NCBI GenBank assembly: GCA_963838485.1
Contig: CAWIRY010000115.1
Location: 2,323 to 66,322 of the forward strand
From: an uncultured delta proteobacterium
Lineage (GTDB): Bacteria > Desulfobacterota > RBG-13-43-22
Direction: 5' to 3'
Length of the DNA: 64,000 nt
Shown here in pieces: positions 2,249 to 50,988 of this stretch. The stretch's first letter is position 1; every line of letters begins with the position of its first letter. The notes under the pieces were generated by a model that saw nothing but the letters and a program-made list of their open reading frames with translations, did not search any database and was not told the origin of the DNA. The translations under genes and the position numbers were made by a program.

Positions 2249-2602
2249 TCAGAAATTAAAGACTTTGGCTTCGGCGGCCAGATCGATCAAATGGGGTCCC
2301 CCATCCAGGACCATATTGGAAAAGAATTTGGCCTCATCCACCTGACGGGCCTTGGCACAGGGGATTCAGACCCCGATGGGGATCTCGTTTTCCACCAGAT
2401 AGGGCAGATAGTCATCGGGGCAGTCTCCGGTTGCCGTTTTGCCGGACATATCCCGGCTGGAATCGGCCCATCTTACCCCGTCGTCGATAAAAAAGACATC
2501 CACCTTATGTCCTTTGGAATGGGCGATCTTACTGAACTGAAAACACCGGGTGGCACTTCCCACCTCATCTTTGCTCAAGACAAATAAAAAATTGGCCATC
2601 AC
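2249..2602 (-). CDS. DsrE/DsrF (YchN)-like family protein with an in-frame TGA (candidate selenocysteine, UxxC motif).
   Basis: Minus-strand ORF MMANFLFVLSKDEVGS...LPYLVENEIPIGV-[TGA at 2366..2368]-IPCAKARQVDEAKFFSNMVLDGGPHLIDLAAEAKVFNF. The reading frame continues cleanly through the TGA to a TGA stop at 2249-2251. An AAGGAG RBS precedes the start. The total of about 117 aa is typical of the DsrE family. Confidence 0.65.
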
Positions 2603-2620: not shown

Positions 2621-3061
2621 TTAATCCCTTATTTGTGTTACAGGGTCTCCAGTTTTAACCTCTCCACTTTCAATGACCTGACAAAAAACGCCTTTGGTCG
2701 GTAAAAGCGAATATCCCTTGTAATTGTAGGTATGAGATCGGGAGAGGTCTTTCCCGAGTTGAATGATTATCAGTTTGGCTTTGCCTACCTGTAGTTTTGA
2801 TCCACAGTCCATGGAGTGGATATCGATTCCTTCGGTTCTGATATTTTCGGCAAAACATCCGGGTTCTGCTGAAAGGCCGGTTTCCCGGCAAAAGGTTTGG
2901 ACATCCTCTTCGGCCAGGAGACTGACCTCCTTTTCCGTTCCGGCATGGGAATCCCCCTCGAGACCCCAGGCCACCCGGAACAGACCAGCCTTAGCATTTT
3001 TTTTCGGTTCGGGCCGTTTTGGACTTAAACACACCCCAAGCACTTTACCGGATTTTTTCAT
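2621..3061 (-). CDS. MOSC domain-containing protein.
   Basis: 146 aa with ...GLEGDSHAG..., a MOSC-like beta-barrel signature. Confidence 0.65.
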   Translation of the reverse strand: MKKSGKVLGVCLSPKRPEPKKNAKAGLFRVAWGLEGDSHAGTEKEVSLLAEEDVQTFCRETGLSAEPGCFAENIRTEGIDIHSMDCGSKLQVGKAKLIIIQLGKDLSRSHTYNYKGYSLLPTKGVFCQVIESGEVKTGDPVTQIRD

Positions 3062-3092: not shown

Positions 3093-3698
3093 TTATTCAA
3101 AAGCCATTTCCGGTTTCCAAACTTCCCAGACCTTACCCACCAAATCAGGTCCGGGTGTGAGGGTCGTATTCCCCGGCTGCCAACCCGATGGTGTGGCCTC
3201 ACCCGTGGCCCGAACATGCTGGAAGGCCTTGACCTGTCGTAAGAGTTCCGAGACATTCCGGCCGACCGGTGGGGTAACCACCTCCATGGCTTGAATGATC
3301 CCGTCAGGGTCTATCAGGAAACGCCCCCTGATGTCAACACCGGCTTCATCGTCGTAAACCCCATAGACCTTTCCCACCAGTCCCCCGGCATCGGAGAGCA
3401 TGGGAAAGGGTATTCCCCCCTTGACCATTTTGGAAAGTTCCTCTTCATTCCAGATCTTGTGTATAAAACGGCTGTCTGTGCTCACTGAGAGGACCTGGAC
3501 TCCGAGGGCCTTAAATTCTTCATATTTGGAGGCGACCGCCGCCAACTCGGTGGGTCAGACAAAGGTGAAATCACCCGGATAAAAACAGAGTACCACCCAC
3601 TCCCCTTTAAATTTGGAGAGACTGATGTTTTCAAAACCGCCATCGATAAAGGCGTTCACTTCAAAATCAGGTGCGGGTTTGCCCACTTTTGCCGTCAT
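3093..3698 (-). CDS. 2-Cys peroxiredoxin (AhpC/Prx1 family) with an in-frame TGA at the peroxidatic Cys position (candidate Sec-peroxiredoxin).
   Basis: Minus-strand frame: [47 protein letters not shown]-[TGA 3555..3557][28 protein letters not shown]... The canonical FTFVCPTE motif has Cys replaced by TGA. An AGGAGG RBS lies 7 nt upstream of the ATG at 3696-3698. The ORF tracks 3555..3806 and 3093..3545 are the two halves. Confidence 0.85.
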
Positions 3699-3872
3699 GA
3701 TAACCTCCTGTGGTGTGTTGGGGTTTCCTGATTCGACCGATTCCGTCCGGGGTACCCCGATCGGACCCTTTGCCGGCTTTACACAACCATCTTTTGCTTT
3801 AGCCATAATAGTCTCCTTAATGTTTTAGGTAAAACAACTTTGTATTGAATGGACGACTATTGACGATCTCTT

Positions 3873-4628
3873 CTAAGACTTTAAAATTCGTAAGTTCAGC
3901 TTCCGGACAAAATTTTTAAAATCCCGTGTACCACCTCCTTCGCTTACCATTTGCAAAATCCCTTTTGGATCAATAATCTCTATCCCGGAAAGCATGGTGA
4001 CCGGGGTGTCTTTAAAGGCCTCTTTTAAAAGCGGGGTTGAAGTCCCTAAGAGGACCACCTCCCGGCAGGAGGCCGCGGCCCTGAGCAGAGGATCGATGGT
4101 ATTATTGAGAAGTGTCGTTGAAGTGATCAGGGCAATCTGGCATTTAGGCAGCCACTCAAAGGCGGCCTCTTCCGGCAGGATCTCCCCGGGCTGTTCCCAT
4201 TTTTCAAAAATGGTCAGGTGTTTTACCCTCTTTTTCAGTTCGGATACCATTGGGGCAAAGTATCCTACCATACCCACCTCATCCCCGGGGTGGAGATTCA
4301 GGACCTTTAAAATATCCCCTTCCTGTGCTCCATGGATTTGATGATTTATCAGGGCATTGGCCGCGGCCAACCCCACGGTGGCTTCAATTTTTTCACCTGA
4401 ATTGAGCCCGGACAAAAGCGCGCCCACCGGCCGGCCGGCCAAAGGACGGAGGCCATGGAATACGGAACAGCCGCCCGGCAAATCCTGTCGGAAGGTTAAG
4501 GCCAGGCCGGTCCGGCCCGATTCGAGTTGCACCGCTGTATACCCTAAGCCGATACGCACATCTTTGACTTCTTCTTTCATGCCCTTGTCTCGCAGGGCTT
4601 GGATAATCTTTTCCTGTATTTTTGTCAT
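3873..4628 (-). CDS. DUF364/DUF4213-type Rossmann-like domain protein (hypothetical).
   Basis: 251-aa ORF. Domain-level resemblance only. Confidence 0.45.
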   Translation of the reverse strand: MTKIQEKIIQALRDKGMKEEVKDVRIGLGYTAVQLESGRTGLALTFRQDLPGGCSVFHGLRPLAGRPVGALLSGLNSGEKIEATVGLAAANALINHQIHGAQEGDILKVLNLHPGDEVGMVGYFAPMVSELKKRVKHLTIFEKWEQPGEILPEEAAFEWLPKCQIALITSTTLLNNTIDPLLRAAASCREVVLLGTSTPLLKEAFKDTPVTMLSGIEIIDPKGILQMVSEGGGTRDFKNFVRKLNLRILKS

Positions 4629-13419: not shown

Positions 13420-14283
13420 TTAATGTGTTTCTAAATATTTTTTTATGTGCCTCCTGAGGATTTCATGGAATAACCTCTGAAATTTTTCCTTCCATTCCGG
13501 GTGAATTTCAACGAGTGATTGCCCCAGGGCATAACCCTCGGCTATTTTGCGTTCGAAAGGGATTTCCATCAGCAAAGGAATGTCTTTCGATCGCAAATAT
13601 TTTTGAACCTCCTGGTCTCCCATGTCGGCCCGGTTCAGGATGACCCCAAAAGGAATACCTAAGCTTCCGAGGGCGGCTACGGCCAGCTTCAAATCATAAA
13701 GCCCGAAAGGGGTGGGCTTGGTCACCAGGATCGTATAATCCGACCCTTTAACGGTCTGTATGACCGGGCAGGAGGTGCCCGGCGGGGCATCCAGGATGGC
13801 CAGTACATAATTCTTGATTCGTTTTTTAACCTCCCGGATTAAAGGGGGAGACATGGGCTCCCCAACCCGCAACCGGCCATGGACAAAACGAATGACTCCG
13901 GACCAACCCTCTTCTATCTCTCCCAATTCTTTTTTCCCTGGGTTCAGGGCCTTTGGTTCGCAGACCAGGAAGCACCCTCCGCAGGCATGGCACATTTCCG
14001 GAAAAGTCAGGATCGTTTCCCCGAGCACCAAAATGGCCTTGAACTGGCACAATTGGGAACAGGCCCGGCAGTAGGTGCATTTGGTTTCATCGACCACCGG
14101 GATCTGAGCATAAATCGTCTCTTTATTTTCCCATCGGGGCTTCATGAAGATATGGCCGTTGGGGGCTTCCACATCGCAATCCAGGAGTTGGACCGGTTTC
14201 TGCAAAGAAGTCGCCAGGGCCACGGCCACGCTGGTCTTGCCTGTCCCCCCTTTACCGCTGGCTATACTAATGATCACAGACAT
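13420..14283 (-). CDS. MinD/ParA-superfamily ATPase with ferredoxin insert (paralog of 12219..13100).
   Basis: 287 aa with SGKGGTGKTS and CTYCRACSQLC / CHACGGCFLVC. Confidence 0.8.
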   Translation of the reverse strand: MSVIISIASGKGGTGKTSVAVALATSLQKPVQLLDCDVEAPNGHIFMKPRWENKETIYAQIPVVDETKCTYCRACSQLCQFKAILVLGETILTFPEMCHACGGCFLVCEPKALNPGKKELGEIEEGWSGVIRFVHGRLRVGEPMSPPLIREVKKRIKNYVLAILDAPPGTSCPVIQTVKGSDYTILVTKPTPFGLYDLKLAVAALGSLGIPFGVILNRADMGDQEVQKYLRSKDIPLLMEIPFERKIAEGYALGQSLVEIHPEWKEKFQRLFHEILRRHIKKYLETH

Positions 14284-15557
14284 TGGCTCCGGTAATCAGG
14301 GATTGATTGACATACTGGGCAATCAATTCTTCCGGAGCCAGTTGAGGTGCCCCGGTTAACACCTTGATCCCACTTTCATTAAAGAGACTGACCGCCCTTT
14401 GGCCCATGCCGCCGGCGATGATGAGGTGGACCCCTTTTTCACCCAGCCAGCGGGGCAGGAGACCGGGTTCATGGGGGGGAGGGGTGACCAATACTTTTTG
14501 AATAATGTTTTTCCCTTGTAAATCGATTAAGGCAAACTGTTCGCAATGACCGAAATGATTACAAAGTTTCCCCTCGGCCATGGGAATGGCGATCTTTAAA
14601 CTGTCAAGGGTTGAATTTTTTGAGTCTATCATGGGTAATACCTCCGTTATTAGTTTTTTTATTTCCTTTGGGCTTTGGATTGTCGCCGTTATGATCTTTT
14701 CGATAATGTTATCAAGAGCACCTTTCACCGCAGGTGCCGGGTTATGAAGGAGATAGGCCTGCCCTTGATCCCCTTTTTCCATGAGTTGAATGTCAAAAGG
14801 AATACTTCCTAAGAAAGGGACCTTCATGGAGACGGCCGTGCGTTTCCCCCCGTCTTTTTTAAATATGGCCGATTCCTGACCGCAGTGAGGGCAGATATAG
14901 CCACTCATGTTTTCCACCAATCCCATTATGGGCATATTAACCTGGCGGGCAAAAATTGATGGATTTGCGCACATCGGCCAGGGAGATCTCCTGGGGAGTG
15001 GTTACAATAACCGCCTGGGCTTCCGGGATGGTCTGGGCCACGGTCAGGGGCTCATCCCCCGTTCCCGGTGGGGAATCAATGATCAGGAAATCCAGGTCTC
15101 CCCAGATCACATTGGCAATAAATTGGCGAATAACCCCGATCTTCAGGGGACCGCGCCAGATGGTCGGTGAATCCTTGTCAGGCATCAGCACTTCAATAGA
15201 AATCACCTTTAAGAGGTCATTGACAGGAACCGGATGGATTCCCACATTTTCCTGAATGGGGGCCCGGCCATTAAGCCCGAGCATCCGGGGGATGCTCGGG
15301 CCGTGCAAATCCACATCCATCAGGCCGACCTGATAGCCTTTTAGGGATAGTCCTACGGCTAAATTTACCGCTAAGCTGCTTTTCCCGACTCCGCCTTTGC
15401 CGCTCATGATTAATAATTTATTTTTAATCCGGGACAATGACCTGGCGATGGAGGCATCTTCCGCCCGTTGGGATTCATTTCCCGCTTCCGAACCGTGTCC
15501 ACAACTACTCATAACAGAAACTCCTTTCAATTTTTTTGTTTCAAAATTTTTTTTCAA
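14267..15557 (-). CDS. Mrp/ApbC (NBP35) Fe-S carrier ATPase fused to a C-terminal NifX/NafY-like domain. Apparent 1-nt frameshift in a T5 run at about 14950.
   Basis: ORF 14937..15557 ends ...DVRKSINFCPPG*. ORF 14267..14974 continues ...FARQVNMPIMGLVENMSGYICPHCG..., the Mrp CPHC motif, then ...KIAIPMAEGKLCNHFGHCEQFALIDL...HLIIAGGMGQRAVSLF, which is NifX-like. Deleting one T from aatttttgcc fuses the frames. Confidence 0.7.
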
Positions 15558-30846: not shown

Positions 30847-31993
30847 GATCCAAAAATCCCCTGATCATTTCACTTAATTTTTCATTGGGAAGCAGGAAGG
30901 CGTCATGTCCCCATTGGGCTTCGATTTCACAGAAGCTGACATCCTTACCATTTTTTTTTAAGGCCCGTGCAATGGCCTTGGATTGGTAAGTGGGGTACAA
31001 CCAATCAGAGGTAAAGGAGACCACCAGAAATTTGGTCCGAGTTTTAGAAAAGGACTGTACCGCAGATCCGTTGCCGTGTTGGAGACCCAGATCAAAATAA
31101 TCGGCGGCCTTGGTGATATATAAGAAAGAGTTGGCATCGAACCGTTCGACGAATTTTGTGCCCTGATACCTTAAATAGCTTTCCACTTGAAAATCAGCCT
31201 CAAAGTTATAAGAGAAATCATTCTTATCCTGGAGTCGGCGACCGAATTTCTGGCGCATGGATTCATCGGAAAGGTAGGTGATATGCCCGATCATACGGGC
31301 CACTGCCAGGCCTAAGGAAGGGCCAGTCCCCGAGTAGTAATCGCCGCCGTTCCAGTTGGGATCTGCCATGATGGCCTGCCGGGCCACCTCATTGAAGGCA
31401 ATGGCCAGGGCCGAATGTTTAGTGGTCGTCGCCAGGGGGATGGCGGAAATAATCATCTCGGGAAAGAGAACGGACCATTCCAACACCTGCATCCCACCGA
31501 TGGATCCCCCGATAACCGAGAGGATCTTTTTAATACCCAGATGATCCAGCAATTGCCTTTGGGCCAAGACCATGTCCCCAATGGTTACCACCGGAAAGTT
31601 CAAGCCATAAGGTTTATCACTCTTGGGGTTAATAGAAGAAGGCCCGGTTGATCCCAGACAGCTTCCCAGGATATTGGAACAGATGACAAAATATTTATCG
31701 GTATCGATTCCCTTTCCCGGCCCGACCATAATATCCCACCAGCCCGGCTTGTTGTCCTCCTGGGAATAATAGCCGGCCACGTGGGAATCCCCGGATAAGG
31801 CATGTAATATGAGGACAGTATTGTCCTTCTCCCTGTTTAATGTCCCATAGGTTTCATAAGCCAGGGTCAACGGTCCCAGGCGGGTCCCGCATTCCAGAAC
31901 CATCTCATCGGGAGGTTCGGCGAAGGTGAAATATTTTTTTTCCACCACTCCCACGGAGATCCCTTTGGGGTCATTTTCAATATATTCGCTCAA
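30827..31993 (-). CDS. metX: Homoserine O-acetyltransferase. Start tentatively the TTG at 31993, overlapping the metY stop as TTGA.
   Basis: ...VLILHALSGDSHVAGY...GGSIGGMQVLEW... (alpha/beta hydrolase, GxSxG). Confidence 0.75.
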   Translation of the reverse strand: MSEYIENDPKGISVGVVEKKYFTFAEPPDEMVLECGTRLGPLTLAYETYGTLNREKDNTVLILHALSGDSHVAGYYSQEDNKPGWWDIMVGPGKGIDTDKYFVICSNILGSCLGSTGPSSINPKSDKPYGLNFPVVTIGDMVLAQRQLLDHLGIKKILSVIGGSIGGMQVLEWSVLFPEMIISAIPLATTTKHSALAIAFNEVARQAIMADPNWNGGDYYSGTGPSLGLAVARMIGHITYLSDESMRQKFGRRLQDKNDFSYNFEADFQVESYLRYQGTKFVERFDANSFLYITKAADYFDLGLQHGNGSAVQSFSKTRTKFLVVSFTSDWLYPTYQSKAIARALKKNGKDVSFCEIEAQWGHDAFLLPNEKLSEMIRGFLDRVYREL

Positions 31994-33254
31994 TGGGGGA
32001 GTCCCTCTAAAGCCTGTCCCAGGTCCTCGCAAAGATCCTCGGCATCCTCAATCCCTACGGAAAGGCGGATCATATCGGGTCTAATCCCCAAGCTCTGCCG
32101 GGTTTCTTCATCAAAAGAAATATACTGGGAGGAGTATGGGTGAATCACCAGGGTCTTGCAGTCCCCTAAATTGGCCAGGTGATAGATTAAACGAAGCCGT
32201 TTGATAAATTTAAAACAGGCCCCCTGGTCCTTGAGGCCGAAGGTAATCAAACCGCCAAATCCTTTCCCCTTAAACTGGGTCTCCGCCGTAAGGTGGGAGG
32301 GATGGTCTTTGAATCCGGGGTAATTGACCCAAACAACCTCGGGTCTTCCTTTTAAGTATTCGGCGATCAAGGCGGTATTTTTTAAAGTCTCTTTCATCCG
32401 AAGCGACAGGGTGTCCAAACCGAGCATGGTCAAAAAGGAATGAAAGGGGGACTGGGTAGTTCCGAAATTGATATGGTGTTCCCTCCATACCTTATCCAGG
32501 AAGGCCAAAGGCCCCTTGCGGTCGATAAAGGGTTTAAAGTCCGGGAAGCGGTCTTCGGACCAGGGGAAGGTGCCCTTATCGATTACCACACCCCCGACGG
32601 CTGCCCCGTGACCACTTAGATATTTGGTAGTGGAATGAATAACTATATCGGCACCGAACTCAAAAGGACGGCACAAGGTAGGGCGAGGTCAGGGTGTTGT
32701 CCACGACCAGGGGGATCCCCTGACGATGGGCAACATCGGAAATTTTTTTGAGGTTCGGGATATCCAGCTTGGGGTTGCCGATAGTTTCCAGGTAGACAAA
32801 CCGTGTCTGGTTATTGATGGCTTTGGCAATGGCCTCAATGTCAGTGGACTCCACCAGCCGAGCCTGGATACCATATTTCTTAAACACCTTATTAAAAAGG
32901 AGGTACGTGGACATGAAGAGGGAATTCCCGGAAACAAATTCATTCCCCGTCCTGAGCAACGCCATACAGGCATTGGTAACGGCCGGCCATGCCTGATGAC
33001 ATGACGATGGCGCCCTGCCCTCCTTCTAATAGGGTTAGTTTCTCTTCCAAAGTGCGGTTGGTGGGATTGGTTAACCTCATGTAGATATGATCGGCGGTCT
33101 GCCCGGCAAAAGTCTGACTTAAACTTTCCGCAGTCGGATGAAGGTGTGAAGCGGTCTGGAAGATCGGGGACAGGGTCGACCCCTCCCAGGATTCCGGCGA
33201 TTGTCCGGCGTGGATGACTTGGGTGTCAAAATGATATGGGGTTTCGCTTACCAT
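31990..33254 (-). CDS. metY: O-acetylhomoserine sulfhydrylase (PLP-dependent, MetY-like), split over three frames by two 1-nt indels at about 32960 and 32670.
   Basis: Segments ...QVIHAGQSPE...SSGMAG / ...LLRTGNEFVSGNSLF...IPLVVDNTLTSPYL / ...GADIVIHSTTKYLSGHG... Ordered together they give a complete MetY. Confidence 0.7.
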
Positions 33255-33291
33255 AAGGGTCTTCCATCGATTTAAAAGGTTTATCCGTCAA

Positions 33292-43787: not shown

Positions 43788-44864
43788 TTACAGAAGGGCA
43801 TTAAAGAGAAAACCCACCAGAAGAATTCCCGTTGCCACCACCCCGACAAAGACCGCAATGAGCCGTGGTTTCAAGACCTTTCGCAGGATAATGGTTTCCG
43901 GCAATGATAAGCCGATAACGGCCATCATAAAGGCCAGCACTGTGCCCAGGGCGGCCCCTTTTTCCAAAAGGGCCTGGACTACCGGGATGATCCCGGCGGC
44001 ATTGGAGTACATGGGAACACCCAACAGGACGGCCAAGGGGACCGACCACCAGGCCTCTTTGCCCATGATGGAGGCCATAAAACCAACGGGAACGTAGCCG
44101 TGGATGGCCGCGCCGACAGCGATACCGGCAACAACATACAGCCAGACTTTGCCGACGATGTCTTCGACCGCCTGCCAGGCGTAGTCGATCCGGCTCGACC
44201 AGTTCAGGGTTTCCATGAATAAGGGGGAGCCGTTGGTCCTGATTTCCCGGACCCAATCTTCGATATGGTTTTCCATGTGTAACCGACCGATGACCCAGCC
44301 GCTGACAATGGCAATCATCAATCCGGTCGTCAAATAGAGGAGGGCCACCTGCCAGCCAAAGAGCCCGAACAAAAGCACCAGGGCGATTTCATTGACCATG
44401 GGGGCAGAGATCAGGAAGGACAAAGTGACTCCCAAAGGTACCCCGGCTTCGACAAAGCCAATAAATAAAGGGATGGCCGAGCAGGAGCAGAAAGGGGTGA
44501 CGATTCCCAGGCCGGCGGCCAGAACATTTCCGGCCGATTCCTTTTTGTCGGCTAAAATAGCCCTGGTTTTTTCCGGGGTAAAGAAAGAGCGCAGGATCCC
44601 CACTCCAAAGACCACCAGGGTAAGGAGCATCAGCACCTTGGGGACATCGTAGAGAAAAAAGGCGATGGCCTCGGCCAAATGAGTGCCTCTGTTCAGGCCA
44701 AACAAATCAAAGGTCAACCACTCGGTGAGTTTGGGCAATTGATAATAGAAAATCCACCAGGCCATCAAGGCCACCAACAGGATAAGCAGTTTTTTTCGCA
44801 GGCTTATTTGGCCGGAATTTTCATTGATCCTTTGAATACATTCACAGGAAACGGTGTCGTTCAT
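43788..44864 (-). CDS. arsP: DUF318/ArsP-family permease (organoarsenical efflux type).
   Basis: 358 aa with the TPFCSCSAIP motif. Confidence 0.7.
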   Translation of the reverse strand: MNDTVSCECIQRINENSGQISLRKKLLILLVALMAWWIFYYQLPKLTEWLTFDLFGLNRGTHLAEAIAFFLYDVPKVLMLLTLVVFGVGILRSFFTPEKTRAILADKKESAGNVLAAGLGIVTPFCSCSAIPLFIGFVEAGVPLGVTLSFLISAPMVNEIALVLLFGLFGWQVALLYLTTGLMIAIVSGWVIGRLHMENHIEDWVREIRTNGSPLFMETLNWSSRIDYAWQAVEDIVGKVWLYVVAGIAVGAAIHGYVPVGFMASIMGKEAWWSVPLAVLLGVPMYSNAAGIIPVVQALLEKGAALGTVLAFMMAVIGLSLPETIILRKVLKPRLIAVFVGVVATGILLVGFLFNALL

Positions 44865-49130: not shown

Positions 49131-50988
49131 CTAAAAGGGAACTATAAAATCCATTTCTTTTAATTTTTGACCCAATTGTTCATAGGTAATGGGCTGAAAC
49201 CCATACTTCTCCACATTGGCCGGGACGTTGGAATATAATTCACCCTCCATATCCAGGACTGTGCGTCTTCAGCCACGATTGGACAAAGTTAGCATTAAAG
49301 GAGTTTGCATTTAGATAGCTGGTCTGGGCAAAAGTGGCTATAATTTAAATAGCCATAGAAAGGAACAAGAGGATGGAAACAGCAATCGCCCAGAAAGTGG
49401 ATCAGGAAGAAAGAGCACCGCAGGGAAGCGCGGCAAAACTCATCAGGGAAATTCGGACTAAGAACCGCAGGAAGTTCTCCTCAGAAGACAAGATCAGGAT
49501 TGTACTTGAAGGATTCCGAAAGGAACAACCCATCTCAGACCTCTGTAGAAGAGAGGGCATTTCATCTGCCCTTTACTATTCATGGCTCAAGGATTTCATG
49601 GAAGCAGGCAAGGCGCGCCTTAAGGGTGACAGCCTGAGAGAGGCAAACAATATTGAAGTCAAGGAACTCCGGTCAGAAAACGGCAGGCTGAAAGAGCTGG
49701 TAGGAGAACAGGCCCTGCATCTGCAGCTTTTTAAAAAAAGTCTGAATCCGTAGCGGAAGGCTGGTACCGGAAGATGGATGGGAAGAGCAGAGAGGATCTG
49801 ATCGTGAAGATAGAGAAGCAGGAAGGCAAGAAGGGTGAGGCGCTCAGAGACCTGGATATACCAAGGTCTACCTATTACACCTGGCGGAAGGCCTATCAGT
49901 CACAGGGGATAGAAGGCGTTACCAAGACAAAACCCTCAGCCAAACGTATATGGAACCGACTGAGAGCGGTTGAGGTCGAGCAGGTGCTTGAAATTGCTCG
50001 CCTTACTCCAGAGCTTTCTCCAAGGCTTCTGGCTGTGAAGATCAGCGATGAAGAGGTCTTCTCAGTGTCAGAATCAACGGTCTATCGGATACTGAGGGAC
50101 AATAACCTGATAGCTCCCCGTCCACTTCCGGAGATGCCGGCTGAGAAACAGTGGAGGCATAAGACCGCTCATCCTGATGAACTTTGGCAGTGTGACGGAA
50201 CAAGCCTTTTTGTCATAGGATGGGGATACTACAAGCTCATCCCTGTTGAGGATGATTACTCACGAAAAATAATAGCTCATGACTTACGGCCTGATGAAAC
50301 AGGATTCAGCGTATCGGACATAATGGAGATGGGCATAGAGAACGCCAGAAGAGAAGGGCATCTGGTTGCCGCCATGCCGAAACTTTACACAGACAATGGC
50401 TCAGGCTTTGCCTCAAAGGTCCTTGCCGGGTATCTGGACGTCCATGGGATAAGACATATCTTCGGCACCCCATATCATCCTCAGGGCAGAGGGAAGATTG
50501 AGCGATTCAATCGGAGGATCAAGGAGAAGCTATGCCTTATGGTTTACTGCTCTCCCGATGAGCTCAAAAAGGCAATTGATGAGGCCATAGCAATCTATAA
50601 CGCTACCCCGCATGAAGCATTGAACAACGTATCCCCCAATGATGTCTATGCGGGAAGAAAGGAGGCCATTCTACAGAAGAGAAAAGAAAAAAAACAATTG
50701 ACCATGCAGCGGAGGAAACAGTACAATTTATACGGCAATGGGATTAACAATGATGGCTCAGATCAGTATCAAAGTGCAAACTCGCTATGACAAAATCTGT
50801 CCAAAAAGGTCTGAAGATATACAATCCAGGACCCAATCCAGATTTTCGCGAAAAGGCTCGGTCATTTCCACTTCATGATCAAGGACAAAGAAATACACCG
50901 AGTTATTCTCTGCAGCCAAGCCCAGGGTTGAGCGAAGCCCTTCCCAGTCTTCCTCCTTGGATCTTATTAAGAAAGCCACTTTTTTCAT
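49131..50988 (-). pseudogene. DsrF/TusC-like gene split by an IS insertion (N-terminal part 50824..50988, C-terminal part 49131..49258).
   Basis: N-terminal part [40 protein letters not shown]...DWVLD. C-terminal part VLDMEGELYSNVPANVEKYGFQPITYEQLGQKLKEMDFIVPF*. Both junctions carry GTCCTGGAT. Confidence 0.6.
49259..50823 (+). mobile_element. IS3-family insertion sequence: orfA 49373..49753, an A7 slippery site at about 49733, orfB 49774..50790 with an rve DDE domain. Imperfect terminal IRs TGTGCGTCTTCAG... / ...CTGAAGATATACA. Flanked by a 9-bp direct repeat ATCCAGGAC.
   Basis: OrfA has an HTH and leucine zipper (…LKDFMEAGKARL…ELVGEQALHLQLFKK). OrfB has DDE residues (DGT.., ..TDNGSGF.., ..E). 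The ends begin with TG and end with CA. Confidence 0.85.

Follow-up and report, generated by a model that had tools for sequence, protein, structure and literature searches.

A predicted selenocysteine peroxiredoxin gene (prxU) and a DsrE-like UGA-containing neighbor in an uncultured delta proteobacterium

A single gene, prxU, occupies positions 3806..3093 on the minus strand of the stretch of DNA analyzed here (64 kb from an uncultured delta proteobacterium, hereafter the window), and it encodes a peroxiredoxin of the Prx1/AhpC fold whose peroxidatic residue is predicted to be selenocysteine (Sec); the probability of this reading is put at roughly 0.93. The enzyme, a bacterial antioxidant of an ordinary type, falls within a selenoprotein family that is already known and curated and has a wide distribution; genes of this type are frequently found in anaerobes and are often annotated wrongly. 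The precedent for the family is the selenocysteine-containing peroxiredoxin PrxU of Eubacterium acidaminophilum, reportedly described by Söhling et al. in 2001. Sec-containing peroxiredoxins (TxxU) are an experimentally verified prokaryotic selenoprotein family (PMC13188914), and both Prx and DsrE-like (UxxC) selenoproteins are typical of anaerobic Deltaproteobacteria, in which the former are frequent (PMC13188914, PMC1794560).

The prxU gene and its in-frame UGA codon

The complete prxU coding sequence (3093..3806, minus strand) comprises 237 codons including Sec84, ends with a TAA stop (3095..3093), and carries the AhpC-TSA and 1-cysPrx_C domains. It is listed as two minus-strand open reading frames (ORFs), 3555..3806 (83 aa, ending in FYPGDFTFV) and 3093..3545 (150 aa, with a TTG start), which have a common frame and are separated by just the TGA at 3557..3555 and three further codons; the separate "ORF" 3545..3093 arises because a TTG chances to come after the TGA. 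Read through, the frame yields a full AhpC/TSA plus 1-cysPrx_C protein (Pfam, E=5e-39 for AhpC-TSA), and the proposal of the sequence-only reading that the two ORFs are one peroxiredoxin gene is thereby borne out. The same reading had described FTFV-TGA-PTE in frame at the peroxidatic Cys, and this too is confirmed: the UGA (codon 84, 3555..3557) falls on the peroxidatic Cys column, within the motif PGDFTFV-U-PTE (P77-G-D-F-T81-F-V-U84), at the U of the P-x-x-x-T-x-x-U signature. Translation starts at ATG 3806 rather than at the internal Met37, as had been implied by the originally proposed span of 3093-3806; a Shine-Dalgarno sequence, AAGGAG (3813..3818, minus strand), lies 6 nt upstream of this ATG, an equivalent AAGGAGG precedes the orthologous ATG in those related loci that were displayed, and with the upstream start the protein gains an N-terminal extension that is both conserved and functional.

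The assignment to the PrxU type, likewise suggested from the sequence, is supported by the NCBIfam equivalog NF040737 (peroxi_PrxU), against which the protein (with U read as C) scores 393.4 bits, over the curated cutoff of 270. Since the match runs from residue 6 to residue 234 and covers profile positions 2-233 of 233, the profile takes in the N-terminal extension as well; the second-best NCBIfam model, AhpC, reaches 196 bits, well under its cutoff of 272. Membership in NF040737 is shared with PrxU of E. (Peptoclostridium) acidaminophilum, which resembles the window protein in having Sec in the PxxxTxxU motif, in being without the canonical C-terminal resolving Cys, in having its selenocysteine insertion sequence (SECIS; predicted in the case of the window) in the coding region right after the UGA, and in its origin in an anaerobe. 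Firmicutes-type PrxU matches carry FTFV-U-ATE and a more divergent N-terminal motif, C-x-R-P, whereas the window protein belongs to a FTFV-U-PTE branch with C-V-x-P-A-x-G-P.

In a DNA-level survey, for which one genome per species was scanned, 80 prxU loci (L001-L080) were returned, and the codon homologous to the prxU UGA is TGA in 79 of them and TGC in one. These loci fall under about nine phylum-level labels (Deltaproteobacteria/Syntrophorhabdaceae, Chloroflexota, Nitrospirota, Ignavibacteria, Planctomycetota, Negativicutes/Peptococcaceae, Zixibacteria, Acidobacteriota, and Actinomycetota), and they include a "delta proteobacterium" MAG that shares ~93% nucleotide identity with the window. 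The in-frame TGA is beyond chance, because it lies exactly on the catalytic Cys column and recurs in 79 of 80 related loci taken from independent assemblies, and the PrxU protein is conserved on either side of it under strong purifying selection. These observations bear directly on the possibility that the TGA is a nonsense mutation, leaving a pseudogene or a split gene that makes an 83-aa fragment and possibly a separate 150-aa product from the TTG. Such a scenario would agree with the two ORFs given by gene callers, with the 150-aa fragments found in databases, and with other apparently disrupted genes in the window; it is nevertheless extremely improbable, given the same TGA at the catalytic codon across the survey, the purifying selection on both of its sides, and the covarying hairpin that follows it (see below), and given that a fragment could not function with one half of the thioredoxin fold missing.

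The survey also speaks to a second alternative, namely that the TGA arose through faulty sequencing or assembly or is a strain-level variant, the true codon being TGC or TGT and the product an ordinary Cys peroxiredoxin. In two Acidobacteriota MAGs, L048 (TGC) and L060 (TGA), the prxU genes (position 4247 in both) differ at 2 of 705 nt, with one difference at the active-site codon, and the SECIS of the L048 Cys form is still intact; the pair reflects either a switch between Sec and Cys that took place very recently or a variant introduced by assembly and, because no more than these 2 of 705 nt differ, is taken to mean that single-base Sec/Cys switches do occur. Possible indel errors elsewhere in the window would also favor an error. 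Against this stand the closest relatives of the window gene, L001 (98% amino acid identity) and L002 (92%), which come from independent assemblies and both have TGA and the same hairpin, as well as the presence in the window prxU of a loop constraint typical of Sec genes (R-GU-Y, see below) and the conserved TGA of the adjacent DsrE-like gene, so that an error or variant is considered highly unlikely.

At the protein level, 5.8 billion proteins were searched for PrxU homologs, and the best 120 matches were classed by the residue at the Sec site, which is Trp (FTFV-W-PTE) in 69 and Cys in 31. Fragments account for 17 of these 120 matches and are mostly ~150-aa C-terminal pieces split at the TGA; the nearest entries (89-100% identity) are solely 150-aa C-terminal fragments. 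Both the 150-aa fragments and the W at the site are signatures of unrecognized Sec codons. The frequency of W among these matches could instead be cited in favor of an alternative genetic code in which TGA specifies Trp (or Gly). This explanation retains almost no probability: TGA is an ordinary stop in the window, where many genes that terminate at TGA have another stop 1-3 codons further on and where TGA closes 13 of 44 long ORFs, and a TGA=Trp code is excluded on that ground; moreover, Trp cannot serve as a peroxidatic residue, the true homologs have Cys, and the host lineages, with their approximately nine phylum-level labels, use the standard code. Recoding of the UGA at 3557..3555 as Sec during translation of prxU is thus the preferred reading, and it would depend on an RNA signal of the kind considered next.

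The hairpin downstream of the prxU UGA

A bacterial SECIS-type hairpin with the arrangement UUGG-C-GGC / GGUC / GCC-U-CCAA, supported by folding and covariation, is located at 3526..3545 on the minus strand, with one C·U mismatch in its stem and the apical GGUC at 3537..3534. The sequence-only reading had pointed to a SECIS-like hairpin beginning about 11 nt after the UGA; the hairpin itself stands on both covariation and minimum free energy (MFE) folding, and its spacing is to be corrected, as UUGGCGGCGGUCGCCUCCAA (3545..3526) starts 9 nt after the A of the UGA. An RNA fold of the region after 3555, which the same reading had proposed as a check, returns precisely this hairpin as the MFE structure of the isolated region (-9.2 kcal/mol). 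Its apical loop starts 17-18 nt after the UGA, inside the 16-37 nt range published as a rule for the apical loops of bacterial SECIS elements (PMC10778597).

With the U of the UGA counted as position 1, the consensus of the region is UGA CCN ACN GAR YUN NCG GCR GUY GCC NNC AAR, in which positions 13-21 are paired with 32-24 around G22-U23. Covariation was tested on a gapless alignment of 79 sequences, with slid registers and 500 shuffles as controls. Standard pairs are formed in 84.8% of the cells, seven of the nine pairs show changes on both sides, and the covariation score is 0.261, as opposed to 0.07-0.11 in every slid register, with none of the 500 shuffles reaching the observed value. Part of the stem pairing is to be expected without selection on the RNA, because three stem pairs are forced by Ala and Val codons. 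The most informative pairs involve synonymous third positions: no sequence leaves pair 18-27 open, and five pair types occur there (GC 64, AU 6, GU 3, UA 3, CG 1); for pair 21-24 the counts are 48 AU, 28 GC, and one unpaired; unconstrained third positions close by use all four bases.

The loop provides a control that is tied to the UGA itself. All 75 unique Sec-form sequences have G22 and U23, an invariance that is also forced by the Val codon; the flanking purine and pyrimidine (R-GU-Y), whose coupling is not codon-forced, are present in 74 of the 75. For comparison, 11 Cys-form genes encoding the same peptide or variants of it at 1-2 residues were assembled (a metagenome scan for such controls yielded only five loci), and R-GU-Y is found in six of them, the rest having UGUG, UGUC, AGUG, UGUU, and CGUG (74/75 versus 6/11, Fisher p=7.5e-5). 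As R-GU-Y is relaxed in Cys forms with a near-identical peptide, the loop constraint tracks the UGA and not the peptide. Some Cys-form genes keep the entire hairpin, and such whole hairpins are probably relics of recent Sec-to-Cys conversion.

Some properties of the element are less typical. Like the bacterial SECIS elements described by the E. coli fdhF type and the bSECISearch consensus, the prxU hairpin lies within the ORF right after the UGA and has an apical loop with an invariant GU; unlike that consensus, it has a short stem that contains an internal mismatch and shows no clear bulged U, and it matches no Rfam model. The loop GGUC is presumably the same tetranucleotide as that of the E. 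coli fdhF SECIS, with its GU placed, by our count, one nucleotide nearer the UGA than in fdhF. The C·U mismatch of the window hairpin occurs where most relatives have C-G. The thermodynamics of the hairpin are unexceptional (z = +0.56 for 71 nt, -0.32, and -1.24 for the isolated hairpin), and for this reason thermodynamic significance is not relied upon in the SECIS assignment. When the whole window was searched with Rfam at gathering thresholds, the SECIS family was not found, and a permissive search of 3400..3650 likewise gave no SECIS, the sole match being a chance fungal snoRNA (E=6.3). On the basis of the aligned sequences, the prxU hairpin is a well-supported predicted SECIS, which, with its apical R-GU-Y loop, would recruit SelB·GTP·Sec-tRNASec to the ribosome.

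Selenocysteine use and the prxU neighborhood

A second gene with an in-frame TGA lies ~1 kb downstream of prxU in the same gene string. This predicted DsrE-like selenoprotein gene (2249..2599, minus strand; PF02635) has 116 codons including Sec, with the motif GV-U-IPC, its UGA at 2368..2366, and its true stop, also TGA, at 2251..2249; it is listed as a 78-aa ORF that ends at the TGA 2368..2366, and the frame goes on for 38 codons (...IPIGV-U-IPC-AKARQ...). Both the TGA and the 38 downstream codons are conserved in L001 and L002. At the corresponding site, CxxC is present in at least 82 of 120 full-length homologs and WxxC in 6 of 120. A candidate SECIS (GGCCCGUC / AGGUG / GAUG-A-GGCC; 2330..2351, minus strand) has a stem that begins 14 nt after the UGA; the hairpin GGCCCGUC-AGGUG-GAUGAGGCC (2351..2330) is the MFE fold (-11.9 kcal/mol, z = -1.9) and is also predicted in L001 and L002, either alone or inside a larger structure, for a total of three sequences. 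DsrE-like proteins are a listed UxxC selenoprotein family (Zhang & Gladyshev, PMC13188914), and the neighboring gene matches that family (PF02635, UxxC) in its DsrE domain, in U-x-x-C, and in the GGU of its post-UGA hairpin loop. Its product is a protein other than PrxU, and its relevance here is limited to Sec decoding, for which it is independent evidence, and to a possible operon shared with prxU.

Between the two genes lies a MOSC-domain gene (2621..3061, minus strand; PF03473), with gaps of 31 and 18 nt around it, and it is probably on the same transcript as the two predicted selenoprotein genes; a promoter and terminator scan returned nothing above chance. Immediately upstream of prxU is a DUF364/DUF4213 gene (3873..4628, minus strand) that is syntenic in L001 and L002, and the gene order DUF364-prxU-MOSC-dsrE-like is kept in both. 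The sequence-only reading had placed the organism among Sec users, and this view gains independent support from the DsrE-like UxxC gene near prxU, the sequence of which suggests that Sec decoding takes place in the organism. Among the ~38 ORFs scanned in the 64 kb window, no selA, selB, or selD was detected by Pfam and NCBIfam scans, and ARAGORN found neither tRNA-Sec (selC) nor any other tRNA in the same 64 kb.

Other places in the window were considered as potential selenoprotein genes and rejected. The in-frame TGA at 32691, which joins 178 and 232 open codons, lies in a frame-shifted MetY-like gene whose upstream frame is not protein-like, and neighbors resembling CoA-disulfide reductase, radical SAM, and methyltransferase proteins, of which Sec forms exist elsewhere, are here without readthrough potential. 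The MetY-like gene, for an O-acetylhomoserine-sulfhydrylase-type PLP enzyme (~31990..33290, minus strand), is broken over at least two frames, its N-terminal part stopping at the TGA 32942 and its C-terminal part corresponding to ORF 31990..32676; it is a pseudogene or the product of indel errors and is not a selenoprotein gene. Similarly, an Mrp/NUBPL-type P-loop ATPase (14267..15557, minus strand) is represented by two overlapping ORFs in different frames, which cover PF10609 positions 2-160 and then 159-245 plus a Nitro_FeMo-Co domain, and the frameshift is either that of a real pseudogene or an indel error. In view of the apparent frameshifts in these two genes, the sequence quality of the window is regarded as imperfect.

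Further genes were noted in passing. The segment 9594..16488 (minus strand) contains Nitro_FeMo-Co (dinitrogenase cofactor-binding-like) genes, CbiA/ParA-type ATPases with 4Fe-4S motifs, and a cation-efflux/Nitro_FeMo-Co fusion, and it looks like a metal- or cofactor-handling neighborhood upstream of the prxU string. An efflux protein (43788..44864, minus strand) matches SaoE, from the Sec-assisted organometallic system, below threshold (135 bits, cutoff 325), and an IS481-family transposase (49774..50790, plus strand) scores 168 bits, under its cutoff of 224.

Catalysis, the N-terminal cysteine, and the family

The nearest solved structures are typical 2-Cys enzymes of the Prx1 class (human Prx2, E=7e-51), which align to PrxU residues 38-221 only. 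With typical 2-Cys peroxiredoxins (human Prx2, PDB 7kj1/1qmv; Salmonella AhpC), PrxU has in common the fold, the active-site Pro, Thr, and Arg, and the C-terminal arm region. It differs from them in having Sec for the peroxidatic Cys, Thr at the position of the GEVCPAGW resolving Cys, 37 additional N-terminal residues that include an invariant Cys, and Cys74 where Prx1 enzymes have Phe. The "2-Cys" label that had been attached to the protein therefore does not hold in the canonical sense, as the resolving Cys of EVCP is replaced by Thr in EATP (GEVCPAGW in human Prx2, GEATPSGW here). No Cys follows the active site in the window PrxU or in the 79 TGA-form loci, and the canonical resolving Cys is missing from all 44 of the 44 database sequences that bear the N-terminal motif; the sole two family members with E-x-C-P-x-x-W are without that motif. 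Short Cys-form relatives that lack the N-terminal motif (P0108, P0117, and P0120) carry additional cysteines in ...RACQ... and ...GKVCEIW..., which are possible alternative resolving positions in this sister branch.

The N-terminal extension (codons 1-37; 3696..3806, minus strand) consists of K-D-G-C8-V-K-P-A-K-G-P-I, in which Cys8 is encoded at 3785..3783, and, after it, a linker of ~20 residues that is variable. Among TGA-form loci, Cys8 is conserved in 73 of 73, Val9 in 72 of 73, Gly14 in 73 of 73, and Pro15 in 69 of 73; residues 17-36 are variable in sequence. The spacing from Cys8 to Sec84 is 74-78 codons across loci, and in 47 of 63 loci an ATG stands seven codons before this Cys. Entropies at the three codon positions of the extension are 0.79, 0.58, and 1.69, and selection therefore acts on it at the protein level. 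The other family-specific Cys, Cys74 (VVL-C-FYPGD; codon 3585..3587, minus strand), lies 10 residues before Sec84 at a position that is Phe in typical Prx1 and is invariant in 79 of 79 loci; TGA-form loci have no Cys columns besides Cys8 and Cys74.

The Cys8 motif is found in Sec and Cys forms alike, and in planctomycete Cys forms it sits after a signal peptide. In the planctomycete Cys-form loci L081 and L084 and on the P0013 contig, the next genes encode VKOR and a thioredoxin-like protein, or Lactamase_B and rhodanese proteins, which suggests an exported version of the enzyme with its own redox partners. In the AF2 monomer of a natural Cys-form relative, the mean pLDDT is 85 for the domain, which is modeled confidently, but only ~59 for the motif and ~45 for the linker.

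In the proposed catalytic scheme, the selenolate of Sec84, set in the P77-x-x-x-T81-x-x-U84 / Arg160 active site, would reduce hydroperoxides and be converted to a selenenic acid. As PrxU does not have the canonical resolving Cys of the C-terminal arm, the oxidized Sec84 would most likely be resolved either by the invariant Cys8 of the tethered N-terminal arm (or by Cys74), giving a selenenylsulfide, or through direct reaction with a thiol reductant, for example thioredoxin. A more specific model, put forward tentatively and at rather less than even odds, is that the PrxU family works not as a "1-Cys-like" Sec peroxiredoxin but as an atypical two-residue enzyme, its resolving thiol having been relocated from the C-terminal arm to the tethered N-terminal Cys8, the Se-S bond forming within or between subunits and being reduced by thioredoxin. 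Within the searchable literature, a role of the PrxU N-terminal Cys arm was not found, the returns being confined to citations of Söhling et al. (2001) that give no detail of the mechanism.

The possibly new element is thus a mechanistic one, in that the PrxU family is without the canonical resolving Cys yet has an invariant N-terminal Cys motif, from which a resolving role for Cys8 (or Cys74) may follow. The family is also systematically mis-annotated, most database homologs being cut at the UGA or read as Trp (the latter in 69 of the 120 best matches); for annotation, the two prxU fragments should be merged into one Sec gene, and the DsrE-like neighbor should be extended through its UGA. Together, prxU and the predicted DsrE-like selenoprotein gene mark the deltaproteobacterium-like organism as a probable selenocysteine user.
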